Shown here: positions 1-63,454 of the stretch, piece by piece | Position numbering within the stretch: the stretch's first letter is position 1 | How the letters are laid out: each line of letters begins with the position of its first letter | Assembly: GCA_964016885.1 (NCBI GenBank) | Contig: OZ024745.1 | Coordinates: 86,800,001 to 86,864,000, forward strand | Origin: Eledone cirrhosa | Taxonomy: Eukaryota | Direction of reading: 5' to 3' | DNA length: 64,000 bases | Notes under the pieces: generated by a model | What the model was told of the DNA's origin: nothing | Databases searched by the model: none | Seen by the model: the letters and a program-made list of their open reading frames with translations, nothing else | Made by a program: the position numbers and the translations under genes

Positions 1-3000
1 TCACAGAGGAAATTATATCTCAGACCAAATTTTATCATAGACCAAACTATATCACAGACCAAATTATATCACAGGTCAGACTATATCACAGAGCAAACTA
101 TATCACAGACCAAACTATATCAGAGACCAAAGTATATCACTCACCAAACTATATGACAGGTCAAACTATATCACAGACCAAACTATATCACAGACCAAGC
201 TATATCACATGCCAAACTTTATCAAAGATCAAACTATAACACAGAATAAACTATATCACAGATCAATCTTTGTCACAAACCAAACAATATCACAGAGAGA
301 ATTATTTCACAGACCAAACTATATCACAGACGAAACTACATTACACACCAAACTATATCACATACAAAACTATATCACAGACCAAACTATATAAGAGGTC
401 AAACTATATAACAGACCAAACTATATAACAGACCAAACTATATCACAGACCAAACTATATCACAGGACAAACTTTATCACAAATGAATCTATATCACATA
501 CCAAACTATATCAGAGACCAAAGTATATCAGTCACCAAACTATATGACAGGTCAAAATATATCACAGACCAAAGTATTTCACACACCAAACTATATCATA
601 GATCAAACTATATCACAGAGAAACTTATATCTCAGACCTAACTATATCAGAGGTCAAACTATATCACAGACTAAACTATATAACAGAACAAACTATATCA
701 CAGACCAAATTATATCAGAGACCAAAGTATATGACAGGTCAAAATATATCACAGACCAATCTATATCACAGACCTAACTCTATCAGAGACCAAACTACAT
801 CACAGACCAAACTATATCCAGACTAAACTATAAAACAGACCAAACTATATGATATACCAAACTATATCTCAGGTCAAACAACATCACAGACCAAACTATA
901 TCACAGACCAAACTAAATCACAGACCAAATTATATCACACACCAAACTCTATCCCACACCAAACTATATCACATGTCAAACTATATCACAGACCAAACTA
1001 TAACACAGATCAAATTATATCACAGACCAAACTATATCACATAGGAAATTATATCACAGACCAAATTATATCACAGACCAAACTATATCACAGACCAAAT
1101 TATATCACAGGTCAGACTATATCACAGACCAAACTATATCACAGATCAAACTAAATCAGAGACCAAAGTATATCACTCACCAAACTATATCACAGGTCAA
1201 ACTATATGACATGGCAAACTATATCACAGACCAAACTACATCACTGACCAAACTACATGACAGACCAAACCATATCACAGACCTATCTATATCACCGACC
1301 AAACTAAATCACAGCCCAATCTCTATTGCAGACCAAAATATATCATAGACAAAACTATATCAGAGGTCAAACTATATCACACACCAAACTCTATCACAGA
1401 CCAAACTACATCACAGGGCAAAATATAACACAGAATAAACTATATCACAGACCAATCTTTATCACAAACCAAACAATATCACACAGCGAATTATTTCACA
1501 GACCAAACTATATCACAGACGAAACTATATCAGAGACCAAACTATATAAGAGGTCAAACTATATCACAGACCAAACTATATGACAGACCAAACTATATGA
1601 CAGACCAAATTATATCACAGACCAAACTATATCACAGACCAAACTATATGACAGGCTAAACTATATCACAGACCAATCTATATCACCGACCAAACTATAT
1701 CACAGACCAAACTATATTACAGACAAAAACTATATCACAGGTCAAACTATATCACAGACCACACCATATCACAGACCAAATTATATCACAGAACAAACTA
1801 TATCACAGGTGAATCTATGTCACAGACCAATCTATATCACAGACCAAACTATATCACACAACAAATTATATCACAGATCATACCATATCCCAGGTCGAAC
1901 TATATCACAGGCCAAACTATTTCACAGACAAATCTAAATCACAGACCAATCTATATCACAGACCAAACTATATCACAGGCTAAACTATGAAACAGACTAA
2001 ACTATATGATATAGCAAACTATATCTCAGGTCAAACAATATCAGAGACCAAACTATATCACAGACCAAACTATATCACACATCAAACTCTATCCGATATC
2101 AAACTATATCACAGGTCAAACTATATCACAGAACAAACTATATCACACACCAAAGTATATCACAGACCAAAGAATATCACAGACCAAACTATATCACAGC
2201 AAACTATATCACAGGTCAAACTATATGAAAGGTCAAACTATATCACAGACCAAACTATATTACAGGTCAAACTATATCACACACTAAACTATATCACAGA
2301 CAAACTATATCACAGACCAAGCTATATCACATGTCAAACTTTATCACTGATCAAATTATATGACAGATCAAACCATATCACTGGTCGAACTATATCACAG
2401 ACCAAACTACATCACAGACCAAACTATATCCAGACCAAACTATAAAACAGACCAAACTATATGATATACCAAACTATATCTCAGGTCAAACAATATCACA
2501 GACCAAACTATATCACAAAGGAAATTATATGTCAGACCAAACTATATCACAGACCAAACTAAATCACAGACCAAACTATATCACACACCAAACTCTATCC
2601 CAGACAAAATATGTCACAGCTCAAACTATATCACAGACCAAACTATAACACAGATGAAACAATATCACAGATCAAACTATATCACAGGACAAACTATATC
2701 ACAGACGAAACTATATCACAGACCAAAATATTTCACAAACCAAATTATACGACAGACCAAACTATATCACAGACCAATCTATATCACAGACCAAACTATA
2801 TGACAGAACAAACCACATCATAAACCAAACTATATGACAGACCAAACTATATCACAGACCAAACTATATTACAGACAAAAACTAGATCACAGAACAAACT
2901 ATATCACAGGTGAATCTTGTCACAGACCAATCAATATCACAGACCTAACTATATCACAGGTCAAACTATATCACAGATGAAACTATAACACAGAATAAAC

Positions 3001-6000
3001 TATATCACAGACCAATCTTTATCACAAACCAAACAATATCACAGACCAAATTATTTCACAGACCAAACTATATCACAGACGAAACTACATTACACACCAA
3101 ACTATATCACAAACAAAACTATATTACAGGCCAAACTATATCAGATTTCAAACTATATCACAGACCGAACTATATCACAGGTCAAAGTATATCATAGACC
3201 AACCTCTATCACAGACCAATCTATATCACAGAGCCTACTATATCACAGAGCAAACTATATCACAGAGGAAATTAGAGAGCAGACCTAACTATATCAAAGA
3301 CCAAACTAAATCACAGACCAAACTATATCACAGACCAAACTATATCACAGACCAAACTATATCACAGGTCAGACTATGTCACAGATCAAACTATATCACA
3401 GACCAAACTATACCAGAGACCAAAGTATATCACTCACCAAGCTATATCACATGTCAAACTTTATAACAAATCAAACTATATCACAGGACAAACTATATCA
3501 CAGACGAACTATATCACAGACCAAACTATAACAGAGACCAAACTATATTGCAGACCAAACTATATGACAGACCAAACTATAAAACAGACCAACCTATATG
3601 ACAGACAAAAATTATATTACAGACCAAACTATATCACAGACCAATCTATATCACTGACCAAACTATATTACACACCAAACTATATTACAGAGCAAACTAT
3701 ATCACAGAACAGACTATATCACAAAACAAACTATATCAAAGACCAAACTATATCACAAACCACAATATATCACAGGTGAATCTATATCACAGACCAAACT
3801 ATATCATAGACCAAACTATATCTCAGACAAAACTATATCACAGACGAAACTACATTACACACCAAACTATATCACATACAAAACTATATCACAGACCAAA
3901 CTATATTAGAGGTCAAACTATATCACAGACCAAACTATATCACAGACCAAACTATATCACAGGTCAAAGTATATCACAGAAAAAACTATATCACAGACCA
4001 AAGTATTTCACTCCCCAAACTATATCACAGAACAAAGAATATCACAGTCCAATCTATATCACACACCAAACTATATCACAGACCAAACTATATCACAGTT
4101 CAAACTATATCACAGACAAAACTATAACACAGAATAAACTATATCACATACCAATCTTTATCACAAACCAAACAATATCACAGACCGAATTATTTCACAG
4201 ACCAAACTATATCACAGACGAAACTAAATTACACACCAAACTATATCACAAACAAAACTATATTACAGGCCACCCTATATCACAGGTCAAACTATATCAC
4301 AGACCAAACTATATCACAGGTTAAAGTATATCATAGACCAACCTATATCACAGACCAATCTATATCACAGAGCCTACTATATCACAGACCAAACTATATC
4401 ACAGAGGAAATTAGAGAGCAGACCTAACTATATCAAAGACCAAACTAAATCACAGACCAAACTATATCACAGACCAAACTATATCACAGGTCATTCTATA
4501 TCACACACTAAACTATATCACAGAAAAACTATATCACAGGCCAATCTATATCACAGACCAAACTATATCACAGACCAAACTATAACACAGACGAAACTAT
4601 ATCTCCGTCCAAAGTATATCACAGACTATAGTACAGAAGAAAATATATCTCAGACGAGACTATATCGCAGAACAAATTATATCACAGGTCAAACAATATC
4701 ACAGAACAAGCAATCTCTAAACAAACTATATCACAGAGTAAACTATATCTCAGACCAAACTATATTACATTCTATTCTATATCACAGATCAAAATATATC
4801 ACAGAACAAACTATAAGACGAACCAAACTATATCACAGACCAAACTATATTACAGACCAAACTATATCACAGACCAAACTAAATCACAAAGGAAATTATA
4901 TGTCAGACCAAACTATATCACAGACCAAACTATATCAGAGGTCAAACTATATCACACACCAAACTCTATTCCAGACCAAACTACATCACAGACCAAACTA
5001 TATCACAGACCAAACTATAACACAGAATATATTATATCACAGACCAATCTTTATCACAAACCAAACAATATCACAGACCGAATTATTTCACAGACCAAAC
5101 TATATCACAGATGAAACTATATCATAGACCGAACTATATCTCAGGCCAAACTATATCACAGACCGGACTATATCACAGACCAATCTATATCACAGACCAA
5201 ACTATATCACAGGTCAAACTATATCACAGACCACACCATATCACAGACCAAACTATATCACAGACCAAACTATATCATAGACCGAACTATATCTCAGGCC
5301 AAACTATATCACAGACCGGACTATATCACAGACCAATCTATATCACAGACCAAACTATATCACAGGTCAAACTATATCACAGACCACACCATATCACAGA
5401 CCAAACTATATCACAGACGAAACAATATCACAGACCAAACTATAGTACAGACGAAAATATATCGCAGAACAAATTATATCACAGGTCAAACTATATCACA
5501 GAACAAACAATATCTCTAAACAAACTATATCACAGAGTAAACTATATCACAGACCAAACTATATCACATGCCACTCTATATCACAGACCAAAATATATCA
5601 CAGAACAAACTATAAGACGAACCAAACTATATCACTGACCAAACTATATCACAGAGGAAATTATATCTCAGACCAAACTATATCACAGGGATATAGTTTG
5701 GTATGTGATATAGTTTGGTCTGACATATAATTTCCTTTGTGATATAGTTTGGTCTGTGATATAGATTGGTCTGTGATATTGTTTGACCTGAGTTATAGTT
5801 TGGTATATCATATAGTTTGGTCTGTTTTATAGTTTGGTCTATGATATAGTTTGGTCTGTGATATAGTTTGGTCAGTGATATAGATTGGTCTGTGATATAG
5901 TTTGGCCTGTGATAGTGTTTGACCAGTGATATGGTTTGAACTGTGATATAGCTTGGTCTGTGATATAGTTTGGTCTGTGATATAGTTAGGTCTGTGATAT

Positions 6001-8190
6001 AGATTGGTCTGTGATATAGTTGACCAAACAATATCACAGACCAAACAATATCTCAGACCAATCTATATCACAGGTCAAACTATATCACAGACCAAACTCT
6101 ATAGCAGACCAAACCAGATCACAGAGCAAACTATATCACAGACCAACTTTGATCACAAACCCAACTATAGCACAGACAACACTATTTCACAGACCAATCT
6201 ACCTCACAGATGAAGCTACATTATGCACCAAATAATATCACAAAACTATATCAGAGACCAAACTATATTACAGACCAAACTATATCACAGACCAAACTAT
6301 ATCACAGAGGAAATTATATTACAGACCAAACTATATCACACACCAAACTATATCACAAAGGAAATTATATGTCAGACCAAACTATATCACAGACAAAACT
6401 AAATCACAGACCAATCTATACCACAGACCAATTTTTATCACAAACCAAACAATATCACAGACCAAATTATTTCACAGACCAAACTATATCACAGACGAAA
6501 CTATATCACAGACCAAACTATATCAGAGGTCAAACTATATCACAGACCAAACTATATCACAGACCAAAGTATTTCACACACCAAACTATATCACAGACCA
6601 AACAATATCACAGACCAAACTATATCACAGACCAAACTATATCACAGCTCAAACAATATCACATGTCAAACTATATCACAGACCAAACTATATGACAAGT
6701 CAAACTATATCACACACTAAACTATATCACAGACAAACTATATCACAGACCAAACTATATCACACCATGCGATATCACATGTCAAACTTTATCAAAGAGC
6801 AAACTATATCACAAGTCAATCTATATCACACACTAAACTATATCACAGACAAGCTATATCACAGACCAAACTATATCACACCAAACTATATGACATGTCA
6901 AACTTTATCACAGAGCAAACTATATCACAAGTCAATCTATATCACACACTAAACTATATCACAGAAAAACTATATCAGAGACAAACTATATCACAGACCA
7001 AGCTATATCACATGTCAAAATTTATCACAGATCAAACTATATCACAGGACAAACTATATGACAGATGAAACTATATGACATACCAAACTATATCACAGAC
7101 CAAACTATATCACAGGTCAAACTATATCATAGACCAAACTATATCACAGAGGAAATTATATCTCAGACCTAACTATATCAGAGGTCAAACTATATCACAG
7201 ACCAAACTATATCACAGATCAAACCATTTCACTGGCCGAACTATATCACAGACCAAACTATATCACAGACCAAACTATAAAACAGACCAAACTATATGAT
7301 ATACCAAACTATATCTCAGGTCAAACAATATCACAGACCAAACTATATCACAGACCAAACTATATCACAAAGGTAATTGTATGTCTGATCAAACTATATC
7401 ACAGACCAAACTAAATCACAGACTAAACTATATCACACAGCAAACTCTATCCCAGACCAAACTATATCACAGGTCAAACTATATCACACACAACACTATA
7501 ACACAAATGAAACTATATCACAGACCAAATTATATCAGAGAGGAAATTATATCTCAGACCTAACTATATCAAAGACCAAATTTAATCACAGACCAAACTA
7601 TATCACAGACCAAACTATATCACAGACGAAGCTATATCACAGACCAAACTATATCAGAGACCAAAGTATATCACTCACCAAACTATATCACAGGTCAAAC
7701 TATATGACAGGTTAAACTATATCACAGACCAAACTATATCACAGGTCATCTATATCACACACTAAACTATATCACAGACAAACTATATCACTGACCAAGC
7801 TATATCACATATCAAACTTTATCACTGATCAAACTATATCACAGTACAAACTATATCACAGATGAAACTATATCACAGACCAAACCATATCACAGACCAA
7901 ACTATATTACAGACCAAATTATATCACAGACCAAACTATATCACAGACCAAACTCTATCACAGATCAAACTACATCACAGACCAAACTATATCACAGCTC
8001 AAACTATATCTCAGACCAATCTATATCTCAGACCAAACTATTTCATGCACCAAACTATATCACAGACCAAACTACATCATAGACCGAACTATAACACAGA
8101 CCAAACTATATCACACGCCAAACTGTATCACAGACCAAACTAAGTCACAGGCGAAACTGTTTCACAGACCAAACTATATCACACACTAAA
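1..8190. repeat. 17-bp satellite array (consensus TCACAGACCAAACTATA), running off the window start
   Basis: Hundreds of diverged tandem copies. The 17-aa periodic ORFs (HRPNYITDQTISQTKLY) equal 3 x 17 nt and are artefacts. Confidence 0.97.
5690..6022 (-). repeat. Inverted block within the 17-bp satellite
   Basis: Reads gatatagtttggtctgt, the reverse complement of the unit, then reverts to forward orientation. Confidence 0.95.
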
Positions 8191-8899
8191 CCCCCATTCA
8201 ATGTGGTCTGCTAAATTCATTGAATAAGTAACGTTGCTTACAATACAAATATTCTTTCTTTTCCTATTATTAATATTAAATTAACGAAGGGTGGTGGATC
8301 AGTAGAATTGGTCGACCTTGGGATAATATAACCCTATAGTATGTGTTCTGTGTCTTAACTTTCTAAGTTCACATCCCGCCGTGGTCGTCATTGATTTTAC
8401 ATTTCCGATGTCTAGAAAATAATGTACCAGTGAAGTACAGGGACTGATCTAATCAACTTTTCCCTTCCCTTTAATTTACTTGTATTGTGCTTAAAGTAGA
8501 AATCAATGTTAGGTTCGTCAACAAAAATCATTCCGTATCGAAAAATGTCTCGTGTTTTCCCGTTAAGTCATATAAATCGATATTTTGAATTAATACAAAA
8601 CAATTTTAAATATTACCTATTGTGGCTGTTTATTTATTTATTCTCTGAAGACCTGAGAGTTTCTTACTACTTATTACCATCACTTAATTATATTTCATCA
8701 TGCTGATATCTTCACATTAAAACTATAGTATTGTGACTCAGATTAATTATTCTGTAGCTTCGCAAAAGAAATATTTTATTGGCGCAATTAAATGATGTTA
8801 TACCATTAAGAAAAACGTGCTGTGTTGGTTAGTTTTGATATCAACGGCGAACATTTTTACTTTATATTATTTGTCAGGTCACTCTTGAGTGTTGCTGGT

Positions 8900-10669: not shown

Positions 10670-11182
10670 CTCCTCACTTAGTACTTAATATTTAGTATGG
10701 CTTCTCCCTTAATACTTAATATTTAGTGTGACTCCTCCCTTAATACTTAATATTTAGTGTGGCTTCTCCCTTAATACTTAATATTTAGTGTGGCTCCTCC
10801 CTTAGTACTTCATCTTTTATTTGGTTCCTCCCTTAATACTTCATCTTTTGTTTGGCTCCTCCCTCAATACTTCATCTTTTGTTTGGCTCCTCCCTCAATA
10901 CTTCATCTTTTGTTTGGCTCCTCTCTTAGTACTTCATCTTTTGTTTGGCTCCTCCCTTAATACTTCATCTTTTGTTTGGCGCTTCCCTTAGTACTTCATC
11001 TTTTGTTTGGCTCCTCCCTTAATACTTCATCTTTTGTTTGGCTCCTCCCTTAGTACTTCATCTTTTGTTTGACTCCCTCCTTAGTACTTCATCTTTTGTT
11101 TGGCTCCCTCCTTAGTACTTCATCTTTTGTTTGGCGCCTCCCTTAGTACTTCATCTTTTGTTTGGCGCCTCTCTTAGTACTT
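10670..11182. repeat. ~30-bp minisatellite (CCTCCCTTAGTACTTCATCTTTTGTTTGGCT)
   Basis: About 17 tandem copies. The first ~4 are a variant (AATATTTAGTGTGG). Confidence 0.95.
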
Positions 11183-27068: not shown

Positions 27069-27310
27069 TCAAGATAGAACCTGTTTTAACTAGTAAGACT
27101 ATTACTCAACAGAGTACTCGATGCTTGAGAAAATAAAGTATGGCTTAACCCGCCCGTCCCCTCAATCTATGTTATTTCTCTTTCTTTCTTCTGATGAAGG
27201 ACTAGCGTCCGAAACGTTAAGACCCTCTTCCTGCTATATCAAGCGTTAACCTAATATATGCCTTCCATATACTGTACCGATTGTGTTGTTATTTCTGTTT
27301 ATCTTTTACA
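27069..27310 (+). mobile_element. Short PLE pLTR/retrozyme fragment ending in (TA)n
   Basis: Contains a minimal HHR and lies tail-to-tail with the PLE on its right. Confidence 0.7.
27187..27222 (+). ncRNA. Minimal type I hammerhead ribozyme
   Basis: tctt-CTGATGA-a-ggac tagc gtcc-GAAA-cg-TT-aaga. Stem III is the palindromic ACGU typical of PLE minimal HHRs. Confidence 0.88.
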
Positions 27311-27326
27311 TATATATATATATATA

Positions 27327-29330
27327 GTGTAAATTTAGATGGGAACAAAACAGAGAGGCAGACAAATAAAGGTTTATTAGCTTCACCCTCTTGAGAGTGG
27401 GGAGGGGGGACGTTTCGGGCTTAAGCCCTTCTTCAGGAGTAAATAGGTTAGGAAGAGAGTTTCGAGGGTGTGTGGAAATACATTTATATAAAAGGGGGAA
27501 GGAGAACAAATAAAAATAAAAATAAACGTAAAAATAAACATAAGAATAAACAATAAGATGAACAAGTGGTGGAAGGGTGTGAGGCGTGTAAGGGTGGTGG
27601 CGGGTGGAGTTGGGAGAGGGAGGCGGGGGGTCGAAGCGGGGAAGGCTGATGGTGGTGCTCGTGTATGTGTGTAGGTGTTAGGGGGAGGGATGTTAGTATT
27701 GTTAGTTGTGGGAGGGCCGAGGGGTGTCGGACAGAGAGAGAGTGGCTGTTGGGACCATCGAAGGTGGTGGTGTTGGTGATGTGGGGGCAGGTGTGGCAAC
27801 GAGGCCTGGAGCAGGGAAGTGAACCGGGGGTGGGGAAGAAGAGCGTGGATTGGGGGGTAGAGAGCTGTGGACGAGGAGGGTGCGAAGATTGCGTGCGCGT
27901 TTGAAGGAGGGGAGGGGTGGGGATGGGAAGATGGGGGAAGTGGAGGGGTCGGAAGAGGCGGAGGATGGTGCGGTGAAGGGTTAGGGTGGAGGGGTGGTAG
28001 GTGATGGGGAAGGGGAGACGGTGGGTGGGTGCGCGGTGGTGTGGGGTGAGAGCGGTGGAGCTGTGGACAGCACGGGCGCGAGTGAGGGCGGTGTGGACGA
28101 GGGAGGGGGGTAACCTCGCCGGATGAAATGGCTGACTAGGGAAAGGGCTTGGGACTCAAAGTCAGCATCTCGGCTGCAGAGGCAGCGGACCGGAGGAGTT
28201 GGGAGTAGGGAATAGAGTGTTTAGTGTGTGTAGGGTGGGAGGAGGTGAAGTCAAGGTAGGAGTGGGAGTCGGTGGGTTTGAAGAAGGCGGAGGTGACGCG
28301 GGAGCGGTAGAAGGGGTCGAGGGCGATGGAGATGTCTAAGAAGTGGACGTGGGTAGTGGAGATAGAGGTGGTGAAGTGGAGTGAGGGGTGGAAGGAGCAG
28401 AAGAAGGAGAGAAAGGAGTCGAGCTGTTCTCGGGTGAGGGTCGTGGCTCCGATGCAGTCGTCGATGTAACGACCGTACAGTTTGGGCGTGGGGCCGGTGT
28501 ACTGGGCAAAGATTTGGGCCTCAACATGGCGAGCGAAAAGGTTGGCATTAGTTTGAGCCCATTCTTGTGCCCATGGCTACCCCCTTGACCTGTTGGTAAA
28601 ACTCACCCGAGAAGGAGAAGCAGTTGAGGGTGAGGACCAGCTCGGCGAGGCGAAGGTGGGTGGGGGTGGCGTGGATGGAGGTGTGTGAGGGCGAGGTAGT
28701 GCCGGAGAGCACGTAGGCCGTCGGCGAGGGGGATGACAGTATAGAGGGACTGGATATCTAGGGTGAAGAGGATGGGACGTGGGCCGCGTGGGAAAGTGAA
28801 GGAGTCGAACAGGCGAAGGGCGTGGTTGGTGTCGGAGATGTGAGAGGGGAGGGTGGTGACGAGGGGGGCGAGGGTGGAGTCAAGAAAGGCGGAAATGAGT
28901 TCGGTGGGGCAGTTGCAAGCAGAGACGATGGGGCGGCCGGGGTTGTCAAGTTTGTGGAGTTTGGCAAGGAAGTAGATAGTAGGGGTGCGGGGGGTGCGCA
29001 CCATGAGGTGGGAAGCGGTGGGAGGGAGGAGGAGACAAGGTGTTTGATGTTGGAGGAAACTTGTTGTTGGTAGAGGGGTGTGGGGTCAGAGAGTAGAGGG
29101 CGGTAGAAGTGGGGGTTATGGAGCTGCCTGAGGGCTTCAGCCGTGTAGAGGTCAGCACGCCACACCACCACGGCGTCTCCCTTGTTCGCCGGTTTGATGA
29201 CGATGTCATCTCGGCTACGGAGGGAGCGGAGAGCGAGGAGTTCGCCGCGTGAGATGTTATTCCGTTTGGAACGGTGGCGGAAGTCGAAGCGATTTACTGC
29301 GCTACGGCAGGCGTCAACGAACGTGTCCTG
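27327..29330 (-). mobile_element. 5'-truncated Penelope-like element (Neptune-type), RT pseudogene, GIY-YIG missing
   Basis: IVIKPANKGDAVVVW, PGRPIVSACNCPTE, LFTLDIQSLYTVIP, RYIDD, HFLDI, FFKPTDSHSYL...SSHP, linker PCSRPRCHTCPHI, then a pLTR with an HHR core. Confidence 0.92.
27409..27440 (-). ncRNA. Minimal HHR core in the PLE pLTR (stem I unpaired)
   Basis: CTGAAGA-a-gggc ttaa gccc-GAAA-cg-TC. The flanks do not form stem I. Confidence 0.6.
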
Positions 29331-54731: not shown

Positions 54732-55750
54732 TTAGGATTGGTGCTCTGAAATAGCGATGTATACATGAGTGTATGTATAGTATATTTGGCAATATACTGT
54801 ATGTTTAATTTAAAACATTTAGAAGACCATACGCTATCAGTTTCAAAGTAGTGACTATGTCACTTACTTCTTTTCGGCGAAAGAAGGGAGAGAAGCTGAG
54901 AGTCTCTTTCACGCTGGTTGGCGTTCATCAGAGCCACCTACTCCACTGCTTTCGCCGAAAAGAAGTAAGTAATCTTAACATGCTAACCATACTCCCACAC
55001 ACACACATACACACATATAACACCCCCCCCACACACACAAGCACACAAATAAACATACATATCTCTACTCTCTTTATTTCAATAGAAAGTCTGAATTTTG
55101 ACACCCCAGCACACCAGCCATATTCCCTGAACCAGAACAATTCTCCTCATCCCGTTTTTCTTGGCCATTATCTTTTGTTTGGCACAAAATTCTCTAAAAC
55201 GCTACAAAAAAAATTCCAAAATACGGGCGCGAAATTTAATGTACATGTTCACGTGACAGTCATAATTTCATTTATAACCAATCAAATTACATTTATAAAA
55301 AAAAGCCTCCGTGAGCCACTTTTTTTAAAGTAAATAGAAATTCAAACACAAACTGGCGCGAAAGCTGATGGGCTTATCCACGTGACAGCATCAACCAACC
55401 AAACTTCACTCATATATGAAAAAAACAATCTGAGCCTCCCACCCCCTTTTTGACGGTAAATATAATAAGAACTTTGTAACGCGAACTGGCTCGAAATTTA
55501 TTATACTTATTCACATGACAGTCATCAACCAACCAAATTACTTCTCTAAAAACCTAGCATTTCGAGCCACTTTTTTCCATATAAAACAGAAGTAATATTC
55601 AAACACCAGCGAGATGTGAGAAAAACCACAAACACTCCGTCTCAATTCTACTTTTGAAAAGTAGAAGGACTGCGAAACTGGTAAAGGAATCAAATAAATA
55701 TATTTATTTAAAAAAAAGATTCCAGTTGCATTTTCGATTTCATCTTTTTT

Positions 55751-55835: not shown

Positions 55836-55889
55836 TAAAAAAAATTAGCAAAAAAATTAGCAAAAAAAATTAGCAAAAAAATTAGCAAA

Positions 55890-57725
55890 AAAAATTAGCA
55901 AAAACATTTTGGATAGAGTCATCCCACAAATAAGAAAACACGTTAATTTACCACTCTGGGAAAACACTTCCCAGGTAATTAACTGGTTTAAAAATATTAG
56001 ATGTAAATCTTCTGCTTCATTTCTACAATTTGATATAGATAATTACTATTCTTCTATATCACCTATACTCCTGAACAAAGCATTGATATTTGCTAAAAAT
56101 AGATCTAACTTAACTTTGGATGACATTAATATTATTACACATGCTAGACTAACACTTATTGAATTTCAGAATGAATACTGGACCAGAAACACATATAGTA
56201 ATCTATTTGATATTACTATGGGTTCAAGCGATTCCGCCCAAATTACTGATCTTGTGGGCCTCTTTCTCCTTTTCAACATAAATGCCTCCTTTCCCCACCT
56301 TAAAGGTGGTTTATATCGTGATGACTGTCTTCTTCTTTCCAACAACCTTAGCCTTTCAGAAATAGAAAAAAACAAAAAGCATATTAGAACTTTCCTTAAA
56401 GACTATTATAGTCTTCATATTACTTTTGAAAAAACAAGTAAAGTAGTAAATTTCCTAGATATAACTTTAGACTTAGCTACGGGTATCTACCAACCTTACC
56501 ATAAACCCAACCAAAACTTACACTACATACACTCACAATCTAATCACCCTAAATCTATCCTTAAAAACCTTGCATATAATATATCACTTAGAATTTCTAA
56601 CCTTTCTTCTAACCAAGATGTATTTGATAAAAATGCGACCTTCTATAATGAAGCTCTAGATAGAAGTGGCCACAAAAATAGATTAGAATATATACCTTCT
56701 ACTAAAAATAAAAATACTATAAACATACAACCTAATATTACCAACAAACACCAAATGAAAAGTACACACCTAAATGCCACCCACACTATACCCCAAAATA
56801 CCAACAACTCTTCTAATATAAAGTATAGTAACTCTCAAAAAACTACTCATCATACAACTCTAATAAATGTTAATAATAAAACTCCTAATAAACAAGATAA
56901 AACACCTAAATCTATAAATCTAACTGAAAATGTGCGTGGTGAGATCATTAACATTAATCCTCCTAGTAAACATCACGATACAACCTATAAAAATAATAAA
57001 CAACATAGAAACCGTAATAGACGAGTTACTTGGTATAATGCTCCATTTAATTTATTTACAAATTAAGGATAATATTGCTAAAAAATTTTTTTATATCCTA
57101 GAGAAAAACTTCCCGCCAAACCACAAATACCATCAAATCTTAAATAGGTCTACAGTTAAATTCTCATACTCAACAACCAATAACATAAAACAAAATATAA
57201 GTGCCTATAATGCATATAAATATAAGAATACCATAAGTATACCACCAATACATCAAACTAACCATAATATCTCCTCAAATACAGAATTAACGAAAGGTTG
57301 TAACTGTAGAAACAAAGCAAACTGCCCATTAAAAGGAAATTGTCTTGTTAACAACATAGTTTATAAATGTAATGTTAAAACTAAAGATTCTATTTGCTCA
57401 TATAAAAGGAGCTACTTCTAACAATTTTAAGGTAAGGTTTAATACCCACAAACATAGTTTTAAAAATGCCGCACTGGCTAATACAACATCTCTAGCAGAA
57501 AAAATCAATAGTTATAAAAATAAGAATATAGAATATGATATGACCTGGAGTGTGCTCAAAAGAGCCACCCCTTATCAAAATAATAGAAATGAATGTAGAT
57601 TATGTTCCCAAGAACTATTTGAAATAATTAAATCTAAGGATATCCTATTAAATAAACGACAGGAATTAATTATATCGTGTAATCATAAACTAAGAAAAAC
57701 ATTTAAATATTATAAACCTAATTAA
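55890..57725 (+). pseudogene. Naiad-type PLE RT / GIY-YIG endonuclease, two frameshifts (~57060, ~57405)
   Basis: WENTSQVINWF, FLQFDIDNYYSSI, FDITMGS, GLYRDD, FLDITL, YIHSQSNHP, VTWYNAPF, TVKFSYS, CNCRNKANCPLKGNCL..NIVY, FKVRFNTHKHSF, CRLC, LLNKRQEL..CNH. Confidence 0.93.
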
Positions 57726-58809
57726 TAACATTATTTTAGATATTAATATATAATTTAATTTAAATGTTAGTTAACCTATAAATTTAATTTAATTAAAATT
57801 CTACTACAGATGAGATTATAAAATATTGGGTAATCATAAATTGTGAAAAACTTTTAAATATTACTAATATATACTTTGTAAATTAATTTATAGATTAATT
57901 TTAATTTATTTAACCTTTTATTAAAATTCCTTTACAGATAAAATTTAACAAAATATCGTGTATTCAATGACAGAGAAATATTTTTTAATATTATAGACCT
58001 AATTAATGTACAATTTAGAAATATATTTATAATTTGGTTTTAATTTGGTTAACCTAAAAATTTAATTTAATTGGCTTAAAATTAAAATCCTAATACAGAT
58101 GGATTGCAGAGTGTCATGTAATCATAGACTGAGATAGGTTTTAGATGTATACCTAGTTAATATATTCTTTGCAATTTTTGAAAAAATATGTATATATATA
58201 TGTATGTGTATATATATGTATATATATATATATATATATATAAATATATATATATATGTGTATATATATATGAGAATATATATGTGTGTATATATTAATT
58301 TTAATTTTTGTTTACCTATAATTATATTCTACTATAGATAAAATACAATATCTGTTTTAATTATTATAAACCTAATTAACATATACTATAGAAATTAATA
58401 TATAATTTTTAATTTAGTTAACCTATAATTTATATTCTACTACCGATGTAATACTTTATTTGTTTTTTTTCCCTATTACTAAATTCATTTCCTAATATTG
58501 ATACCATAACGTTAATAAGTTTAATTTAGTTATACTATAATTAATACTCTACTACTATTTAACTTCAAAATTCCGCTTCAAATATTATAAACCTAAGTAG
58601 TATACACCTTATAAATCAATATATTAACTATCTTTAATTTAGTTAACCTATAATTAATAGTCTACTTATATTAAAATGCATAATTTTGCCTTCTTTCTTA
58701 CATTTCCTAATACTGAAACTACTATGTAAACACATATTATGATCTAAATGCAGATTAATATTCTATGTTTCTTGAAACCTATATTTACTATAATCCCCCC
58801 CCCTATTAT

Positions 58810-60920
<2,111 letters not shown>

Positions 60921-61050
60921 GAACGAAGTTACTTACATATATACACACACCTAACTGTATAAACTTTTTGTGTTTCCATTGGTCAATTTGAACTCTGTTC
61001 CCAAACAGACCTGTAATTTTGAATTGTTGTTATTATCAATAAATATATTT

Positions 61051-61200
61051 CATTATTTCTGAAGACGGCATATATATGAGTTGGTATGTATATTTAATTT
61101 TGATAGTTTGTATAATTTTGTATAATTTTGTACATAGATCTGTTAAATATACATGCCAATTCTAACACATATATATCCCAGAAACGATCGTTAAATAATG
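61051..61200 (+). ncRNA. Type I hammerhead ribozyme with ~115-nt stem II
   Basis: cattattt-CTGAAGA-[gagttggtatgtatatttaa...ttaaatatacatgccaattc]-GAAA-cgatcg-TT-aaataatg. Perfect 8-bp stem I and palindromic stem III. Confidence 0.85.
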
Positions 61201-61537
61201 AACTTTTTTGTTTAATATAAGGAACTGTTTCATTGTTTTATTCATTATTTTTTAAATATTTTATCTTGACTCTGTATTCCGTTTATCTTTCACCGAAAGT
61301 GATTTTTCATTGCATCTCTTCTTTCCATGATATCCGGATTACATTGAGTTCTTCATACGGATTGGACACTACCGTAAACTCTTGGTAGATTTATCTACAT
61401 ATATATATATATATATATATATAAGTTGAAAAAAAATGAAAACGAAATTTCATTTCTCACTCTTAGTATGGCACTTACTTAAATGTAAGTATGTATGTAT
61501 ACGTACATACATATATGTATACAGACGTACAGTAGCA

Positions 61538-61611
<74 letters not shown>

Positions 61612-61768
61612 TACATACAGGTACACATACATATATGCACGCATCAGTTTAGCGGACGCTTATTATAACGCCGCTTTGTTCGTTTGTAAACAAACTGAAC
61701 AGCCTGAATTTATGCCATACGGTGTTAAGGCAACCACGTCACCTTTTTGTTCAACACTGACACAGGAA

Positions 61769-61809
61769 CGATGTACTAGTTTCAAGCTTGTTAGCTATCA
61801 TCAGCACCG
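61769..61809 (-). ncRNA. Minimal type I hammerhead ribozyme
   Basis: cggtg-CTGATGA-t-agct aaca agct-t-GAAA-ctag-TA-catcg. Confidence 0.85.
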
Positions 61810-62045
61810 TATACCCATCTGCCAGATAGTTGAACGTTCGAAAGTATATACTTTCCTTATGAAAATTAACGGCTGAGCAGCCTAATTTGCATATTGAGTG
61901 AGTTAAATCGGTCAGGCATACCGAAAACGATAAGTTGAAAAAAAATGAAAACGAAATTTCATTTCTCACTCTTAGTATGGCACTTACTTAAATGTAAGTA
62001 TGTATGTATACGTAATACATATATGTATACAGACGTACAGTAGCA

Positions 62046-62095
<50 letters not shown>

Positions 62096-62252
62096 TACAT
62101 ACAGGTACACATACATATATGTACGCATCAGTTTAGCGGACGCTTATTATAACGCCGCTTTGTTCGTTTGTAAACAAACTGAACAGCCTGAATTTATGCC
62201 ATACGGTGTTAAGGCAACCACGTCACCTTTTTGTTCAACACTGACACAGGAA

Positions 62253-62293
62253 CGATGTACTAGTTTCAAGCTTGTTAGCTATCATCAGCACCG
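62253..62293 (-). ncRNA. Minimal type I hammerhead ribozyme (identical second copy)
   Basis: Same sequence, 484 nt from the first copy. Confidence 0.85.
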
Positions 62294-62415
62294 TATACCC
62301 ATCTGCCAGATAGTTGAACGTTCGAAAGTATATACTTTCCTTATGAAAATTAACGGCTGAGCAGCCTAATTTGCATATTGAGTGAGTTAAATATATGTAT
62401 GTGTACCTGTATGTA

Positions 62416-62489
<74 letters not shown>

Positions 62490-63454
62490 TGCTACTGTAC
62501 GTCTGTATACATATATGTATGTACGTATACATACATACTTACATATATATATATATATATATATATGTAAAATAAGTGAGTTTGGAAGTAACTACATTGC
62601 AAATGGAACTATAAATATCAATGTATGTAATTCTATCAGAATGGAAAAGAAACGAGAAAGAAATCTTACTTTAGAAATATTTTACAGTTTCATATATTTC
62701 GGATAATATACCTCTTGATAAAAAAAACAAACAACTATTAACGAAAGTTGAAAGAGTGGAATTAAACGATCATTCTGTTATATTTTGTGGCAGCGTTATA
62801 TATATTTTGTGGCAGTGTTTGTGACAGTAATGTTTACAAATACATAGTCAGACTTTCTAGAATTTCACTGTCTTATCAACTGGCTATAGTGGTGTTGGTT
62901 TTTGCTACAGCCTTTTTATAGTAGGATTTTCTCCTCTTTCTATTTGGCATAAATATGTTCACTGTAGGCACATTGTTCATGTTTTTTGTCAACCGCGTAT
63001 CTTCGATTTTCCCTTTTTGATTACTTTGATTTAAGCTGTCGCGTTTTAAGCGTTTGCTCTCCTTGTTCTGTTATACTGTTTTCACCAATGTATGTATACA
63101 TTAAAAATGTTTTGACAAACCCGGTGCAATGTATAAGTTACACACACACACCTAATGTACATGTAACATACAGGGATACCACTTTATCCAGATGTTGAGA
63201 CAGTAAAGGTGTAATATATATATATATATATATAAATTAATAATTTAATAAACAAGGAACGAAGCCGAATATATTTATATATATCCATCCATGATCCCAT
63301 TACTCCTGATAGAGTTGTTGAGGCGCCGTAAGGGCGTTTCTAGGGCATTTCAAAGCTTCGCGCAGGTCTTAATAAGGTCTTAATAAGCAGATTTTTTCCA
63401 GAGAAGGATAGAAAATGAAAGAGAGGAAGTCAGGCAGAGATACAAAGGAAGAAT

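Follow-up and report, generated by a model that had tools for sequence, protein, structure and literature searches.

The window, meaning the whole 64,000-nt stretch of DNA that was analysed, contains near its right end a non-coding element composed of two hammerhead-bearing units on the minus strand and a short inverted arm. The element is enclosed by (TA)n on each side and has a Penelope-like element (PLE) as its left-hand neighbour. Its features, together with this neighbouring context, are the following:

55861-61398, plus strand: context outside the element, a 5'-truncated and frameshifted PLE assigned to the Hydra clade (family A), whose 3' UTR contains a TA-rich tract
61399-61423, no strand: left (TA)n, half of the split target, directly after the 3' end of this copy of an autonomous Hydra-clade PLE
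61421-61929, minus strand: unit A, a complete 509-nt monomer and the 3'-terminal unit
61421-61479, minus strand: 3'-terminal stretch of unit A
61541-61605, no strand: internal (TA)n of unit A, 65 nt, between degenerate purine-pyrimidine flanks
61768-61810, minus strand: first type I hammerhead, predicted to be cleaved between 61774 and 61773
61774-62257, minus strand: predicted 484-nt monomer, from cut site to cut site
61930-62392, minus strand: unit B, in head-to-tail order with unit A and missing 21 nt at its 5' end
62049-62089, no strand: internal (TA)n of unit B, 41 nt
62252-62294, minus strand: second type I hammerhead, with the same sequence as the first, predicted to be cleaved between 62258 and 62257
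62391-62547, plus strand: inverted short arm, which stops at the fixed short end of the family and has no tail, with a 2-nt overlap with unit B at the junction
62543-62566, no strand: right (TA)n, the remaining half of the target

Apart from the 21 nt that unit B (463 nt) lacks at its 5' end, units A and B are separated by a single substitution, a gap of 1 nt and 24 nt of TA length. The inverted arm (157 nt) is the reverse complement of 61480-61636 and sides with unit A at all three A/B differences. Reading frames over the unit are of low complexity only, indicating that it is non-coding, and the units follow one another without terminal repeats or any LTR organisation. A preliminary description of this locus had reported two near-identical monomers with identical hammerheads 484 nt apart. 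The two hammerheads and their spacing are confirmed and the near-identity of the monomers stands, but the second monomer is incomplete, and the right boundary of the element, formerly placed at 62545, is corrected to 62547.

The hammerhead is a 43-nt type I motif that comprises a 6-bp stem I, the CUGAUGA box, a U·U mismatch followed by a 4-bp stem II, the GAA box and the palindrome ACUAGU, with A at position H17; cleavage is predicted after GUA at 61774 and 62258. In the monomer form, helix III consists of one pair and a palindromic loop, while two hammerhead copies can pair as a 6-bp ACUAGU duplex with a computed energy of -6.8 kcal/mol. The palindromic stem III noticed earlier is seen in both hammerheads, and this dimer-type motif is conserved throughout the family. 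Since Rfam gave no match in the window at the gathering score, the hammerhead call rests on manual anatomy and on conservation. A chance occurrence is excluded by the 9,990 exact matches of the 43-mer in the 3.0-Gb genome, as opposed to none for the reversed control.

Conservation was assessed in copies picked by an anchor outside the ribozyme, of which 115 of 118 were aligned and three were dropped below 60% identity; overlapping loci leave some duplicates in this sample, and some of the loci had originally been retrieved with ribozyme patterns. Minor alleles amount to 0.023 in the 11 core columns and 0.024 in CUAG, compared with 0.168 across 179 outside columns, a figure that also counts gaps and truncations. 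Hammerhead position N7 is free (55 U and 60 C among the 115 copies). The third pair of stem I, scored in 99 copies, is G·U in 47, U·G in 35, A-U in 14, C-G in 1 and unpaired in 2; these compensatory pairs represent few events inherited by many copies, with pairing kept in each. At the base of helix II, 96 of the 99 retain the U·U. The hammerhead motif is thus under selection and conserved as a structure. Its activity as a ribozyme is uncertain, because it lacks the G10.1-C11.1 pair, which is termed highly conserved in Cervera 2014, because the minimal PLE hammerheads of that study cleaved weakly, and because one of nine Xenopus dimers cleaved in vitro in Li 2026 (10.64898/2026.07.22.740005).

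The family to which the element belongs is large and recently expanded. In addition to the exact matches, a relaxed core pattern occurs 25,060 times in the genome and an anchor outside the ribozyme 19,556 times. The copies are therefore dispersed, and a duplication confined to a single locus, the case that would have contradicted the preliminary description, is excluded. A small share of the copies was inspected, mostly on contig C1, and consisted of 120 larger stretches around copies on that contig and 30 loci of an older subfamily; the latter is ~80% identical, has a ~420-470-nt period and shares the layout of the young type. Units of one insertion diverge by a median of 0.6% (80 same-arm and 143 opposite-arm pairs), compared with 14.7% between loci and 1.7% between the nearest loci, in agreement with the young age proposed in the preliminary description. 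At least two ribozymes are present in 33 of 50 young-subfamily loci, and one locus has 18 hammerheads.

Insertions of the family possess two fixed ends and a clear target. Across the 120 loci, 90 tail ends and 84 short ends are followed by TA (174 of 192 end calls), while the 8 and 10 other calls include some anchor variants; the same loci contain 141 direct tail-to-head unit junctions. Measured downstream from the cut site of unit A, the distance is 354 nt to the tail end and about 295 nt to the short end, which places the short end ~60 nt upstream of the tail end. Of 32 short arms, 30 end within about 10 nt, and the 5' junctions occur at scattered positions. All 57 divergent (two-armed) pairs combine one tail with one short end, a signature of PLEs, so that the inverted piece, whose presence had been recorded correctly, acquires a meaning that had been missed. 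Target-site duplications are unreadable within TA; one 8-bp duplication is present at a non-TA site (L212:5966-8704), where an older-subfamily dimer lies inside an ORF resembling that of PLE family B and has been partly copied into the inverted arm of that PLE.

These ends bear on the possibility that the family is a satellite-like repeat spread at the DNA level through unequal crossing-over, extrachromosomal circles and TA slippage, with the hammerhead as a fossil. Local array growth of this kind may have occurred, as in the ABAB unit pattern of L215 and the duplicated blocks of L220, and many single-ended copies resemble later deletions. Such a process is at odds with two fixed ends combined with variable 5' junctions, the invariable tail/short pairing, the unrelated flanks and the selection on the ribozyme, which largely refute it and make it very improbable.

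In five insertions an arm of the unit is fused to one from another family, and in three of these the tail and short ends are complementary. At these loci (L044 and L047, with family B; L059, with family D; L255; and L285), two ends from different TA-targeting families are joined without TA, possibly by template switch or deletion. As only three of the five are complementary, they do not name the partner of the unit. Twin priming from two RNAs, considered for L044, L047 and L059, is not claimed, given that L255 and L285 are non-complementary, that many single-ended copies resemble deletions, and that nested insertion plus deletion can explain the structures.

PLEs with a C-terminal endonuclease are abundant in this genome (72,002 first-look candidates). 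Family A, represented by many 97-99% identical copies with open frames of up to ~828 aa, contains the motifs DKT, RWR (RWK in Craig 2021), CxCX5C, CxxC and CxH. Family B, which also has the C-terminal motifs, numbers 13,656 3'-end matches and shows the same two kinds of end as the unit: of 30 examined, 27 lie in TA (15 tail, 12 short), two are tandem and one is other. In this family ~120 nt separate the cut site from the 3' end. Pfam returned no match for three PLE protein pieces, and both families are assigned to the Hydra clade on a match to the motifs described for it, with published proteins compared by eye. A motif scan of the 3' end of the family A copy in the window revealed no canonical hammerhead.

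According to Craig 2021 (PMC8557442), nearly all Hydra families insert into (TA)n, and PLE insertions take the form of partial tandems accompanied by an inverted copy that is truncated at its 5' end, with only one end bearing a tail. The layout CUGAnGA-U...U-GAA, with U·U at helix II, is found in 14 of 25 Hydra families by our own count in File S2 of that study. The inverted arm, as the tail/short signature of PLEs, points to Hydra-clade PLEs as the mobiliser, which likely act in trans on the unit. The unit is not an autonomous Hydra-clade PLE, as it lacks the single ORF with RT and C-terminal GIY-YIG endonuclease of such elements, and it exhibits the features of a non-autonomous Hydra-type PLE, namely (TA)n preference and an inverted 5'-truncated copy with a tail at one end. 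Comparison with family A loci revealed no sequence similarity of the unit to family A ends, and inspection by eye only showed none evident to the ends of families B, C and D; the partner is therefore proposed at the level of clade, from shared anatomy and target. That the element is a non-autonomous hammerhead repeat mobilised by PLEs can be stated with considerable confidence.

Alternatively, the copies might be 5'-truncated pLTR debris of a rare autonomous PLE that has this unit at its 3' end. Hammerheads of this kind do occur in pLTRs, PLE insertions are mostly 5'-truncated, and the inspected copies are few and mostly from contig C1. Against such an origin, the 141 tail-to-head junctions lead straight from unit to unit, and a tblastn screen of 110 loci, all but the last 40 fetched, from two subfamilies ~20% apart detected no ORF-bearing parent, that is, no ORF running into the unit as its own 3' end. 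Furthermore, a pattern search for another large family with this ribozyme core yielded none, its 27 matches being mostly point variants. Debris of this sort is accordingly an improbable source of the family.

The template from which a mobilised repeat is copied appears to span the cut site, because insertions end 354 nt from the cut and 5' ends are not piled up there. In the inspected loci, a sample biased towards intact ribozymes, 5' junctions fall within 5 nt of the cut site in 1 of 66 cases, compared with 1.9 expected. A genome-wide pattern free of this bias gave 12 starts at the cut site, nine of them true junctions, compared with 23 at a control site 6 nt away, where eight of 12 inspected matches were true junctions. 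Such a template could be an uncleaved multimer or, as favoured here, a re-ligated circle; the combination of a conserved cleaving core and a cut-spanning template agrees with the model of Cervera 2020, in which the RNA is cleaved, ligated and then copied in a rolling manner. A circular RNA template is regarded as slightly more probable than its alternatives. The computed stability of the circle (-156.5 kcal/mol, 68% paired) was rejected as evidence, since its z-scores (-10 and -7) are inflated by the alternating tracts. Loose ends of family sequence in contigs of four runs (library type unrecorded) are, among those listed, subfamily variants or short flanks.

A linear origin must be weighed against the circle. 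In this scheme the repeat is a non-autonomous Hydra-type PLE copied either from multi-unit transcripts that are linear and uncleaved or through exact template jumps from end to end; the hammerhead would serve end trimming or binding, and no circle would be required. In its behaviour the fixed tail end resembles the 3' end of an RNA, and the ABAB pattern of L215, the mixed units of L052 and L283 and an inverted arm that matches unit A, the terminal unit in the window, fit a multi-unit template better than a single circle. Multicopy head-to-tail insertions are also made by non-autonomous Chlamys PLEs, whose clade is mostly without hammerheads in the account of Craig 2021 (PMC8557442), and the weak in vitro cleavage reported for minimal PLE hammerheads in Cervera 2014 suits the same reading. 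What counts against it is the strong conservation of the catalytic core and the dimer palindrome in a non-coding family, which implies that cleavage matters, together with the absence of cut ends from insertions. Moreover, long homogeneous arrays (L288, L195 and L034) are the simplest product of a circle. Linear templates are thus a less likely explanation, but one that retains appreciable weight.

The circular route may be envisaged as follows. Tandem copies would be transcribed, and adjacent hammerheads would pair through ACUAGU and excise a ~420-510-nt monomer, which a host ligase would close into a circle, by analogy with the retrozymes that have been studied. An endonuclease, presumably of Hydra type, would then nick (TA)n, the target observed at insertions. 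Reverse transcription would begin 354 nt downstream of the cut, at the fixed tail site, and continue across the cut for anything from a fraction of one round to many; the fixed ends and the read-through are features of the insertions themselves, while rolling-circle copying is the putative element of this step. The other target strand would be joined at the second fixed site ~60 nt upstream, by a chemistry deduced from the observed anatomy, to yield the tail-less inverted arm. The internal (TA)n would be carried along and change in length by slippage. On balance, the locus is best described as one insertion of a high-copy non-coding tandem hammerhead repeat with two fixed PLE-type ends in (TA)n, and it is somewhat favoured that this repeat is a non-LTR retrozyme mobilised in trans by Hydra-clade PLEs from a predicted circular RNA.

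The internal (TA)n, which the preliminary description had found in both monomers, is shared across copies and is a family-wide feature. All 227 internal tracts with both flanks contain TA, with a longest run of 5-52 units (median 18; 93 tracts) in the young type and 2-42 units (median 6; 134 tracts) in the older ~80%-identical subfamily. The tract begins 134 nt after the cut site, a distance similar to the ~120 nt that separate the cut from the 3' end in family B, and may represent a captured former target site. Its use as the main priming site was considered and rejected, as arms end in it in only 5 of 243 tracts. Foreign sequence is present in six of the 227 tracts. In two of them a TA-flanked element has clearly inserted: in L031 a two-armed copy of family D, and in L284 a tandem element of ~640-nt period. 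Of the other four, two contain other fragments, a third has 30 nt of foreign sequence, and L281 is ambiguous; L267 may be a self-insertion.

The window contains 42 runs of at least eight TA units, corresponding to about two million when scaled to the genome, and the share of the family in genomic TA runs is roughly 1% or less by this rough extrapolation from one window. The earlier suggestion that the monomer spreads its preferred target and seeds microsatellites is therefore overstated: with clear insertions in two of 227 tracts, seeding is real but small. Elements that carry and seed microsatellites are already known. In family A, seven of the eight copies fetched have a variable 1.4-3.4-kb TA-rich tract in the 3' UTR, so that carrying the target is not unique to the retrozyme-like unit. 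The most specific form of the proposal combines a retrozyme circle reverse-transcribed by Hydra-clade PLE enzymes, with two fixed start sites that are internal and well away from the ribozyme, a captured (TA)n target of its own, integration by PLE machinery from a template spanning the ligated cut site, and at least one more family of like design in the genome. As a whole it is tentative, with a likelihood somewhat short of even.

Metazoan non-LTR retrozymes (Cervera and de la Peña 2020, PMC7229834; Li 2026, 10.64898/2026.07.22.740005) resemble the family in being dispersed, non-coding tandem units of low GC with one type I hammerhead each and thousands of copies. The unit falls within the 51-972 bp range of the retrozymes of Li 2026 (10.64898/2026.07.22.740005) and is slightly longer than the 150-450 bp of those in Cervera 2020 (PMC7229834). 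Its helix III is similar to that of axolotl HHR_Amex1 (one pair and a palindromic tetraloop), and the U·U of helix II to that of HHR_Amex2. By its sequence, with a type I hammerhead in consecutive units that are non-coding, dispersed and conserved in the motif as a structure, the family fits the sequence-based definition of a non-LTR retrozyme. It is distinguished from the retrozymes in the available portions of Cervera 2020 and Li 2026 by its strict insertion into (TA)n, by inverted arms and a pair of fixed ends, and by an internal (TA)n of variable length. Circular RNA has been demonstrated for published metazoan retrozymes, whereas for the present family it is predicted.

Hydra-clade PLEs as presented in Craig 2021 (PMC8557442) share with it the (TA)n target, partial tandems, inverted 5'-truncated copy, one-end tail and helix II U·U. 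In contrast to them, the unit has no ORF and its tail is ~60 nt rather than 30-40 nt, and the distance from cut site to 3' end is 354 nt compared with ~120 nt in family B. MRC1 and other non-autonomous Chlamys PLEs (Craig 2021; PMC9977147) are likewise multicopy, head-to-tail, microsatellite-targeted and PLE-mobilised. However, Chlamys PLEs are green algal, insert into (C)n or (CA)n, mostly lack canonical hammerheads and have 3' ends that resemble those of their autonomous partners.

PLEs were named as candidate retrozyme mobilisers in Cervera 2020 (PMC7229834), and Li 2026 (10.64898/2026.07.22.740005) reported retrozyme-PLE co-occurrence and pLTR homology while leaving the mechanism to be worked out. 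The family may be regarded as a TA-targeting variant of already known retrozymes that adds structural support for PLE mobilisation. No TA-targeting retrozyme with tail/short arms and internal (TA)n was described in the literature searched, from which most subscription papers and Repbase were outside scope; the supplements of Li 2026 may list similar elements. Tens of thousands of ORF-less units share target choice and tail/short ends with co-resident Hydra-clade PLEs, and the cut site is avoided by these ends. With a substrate of ~450 nt whose two start sites are mapped, and with several candidate enzymes that are intact in this genome, both the idea of a circular template and the unexplained PLE tail become directly testable. 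If true, a PLE-copied circle would provide large-scale genomic evidence for the integration of animal retrozymes by PLE machinery.

Newt satellite 2 is the type of a satellite driven by an snRNA promoter, with an octamer and a PSE shared with host snRNA promoters. The unit has a ATGCAAAT octamer, but an snRNA-type promoter is not supported for it, as U2 upstream regions, the only ones tested, contain neither an exact octamer nor a significant match to the unit. The U2 snRNA genes form a tandem array of ~2.2-kb period (G000:C3:307349000-307454000) with no exact octamer within 350 nt upstream.

Several other repeats and hammerhead-like motifs were observed. The window contains a 17-bp satellite (483 copies) and a 31-bp minisatellite, at 1-8191 and 10670-11182. 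Two minimal hammerhead motifs of unlike sequence lie on opposite strands at 27180-27450 (27191, plus; 27436, minus) with (TA)8 between them and are likely the ends of two other PLE families, and a further hammerhead-like motif on the minus strand, with its core at 54931, is located inside ~25-bp inverted repeats at 54850-54970. Elsewhere in the genome, L281 (G000:C1:36892600-36898400) comprises a second tandem TA-flanked hammerhead repeat with a ~318-nt period, three units and an inverted arm. This type of repeat, also present at L204, L316, L317 and L338, has the helix II U·U of the main family and a palindromic ACGCGU helix III, and motifs related to its hammerhead occur at other places as well.
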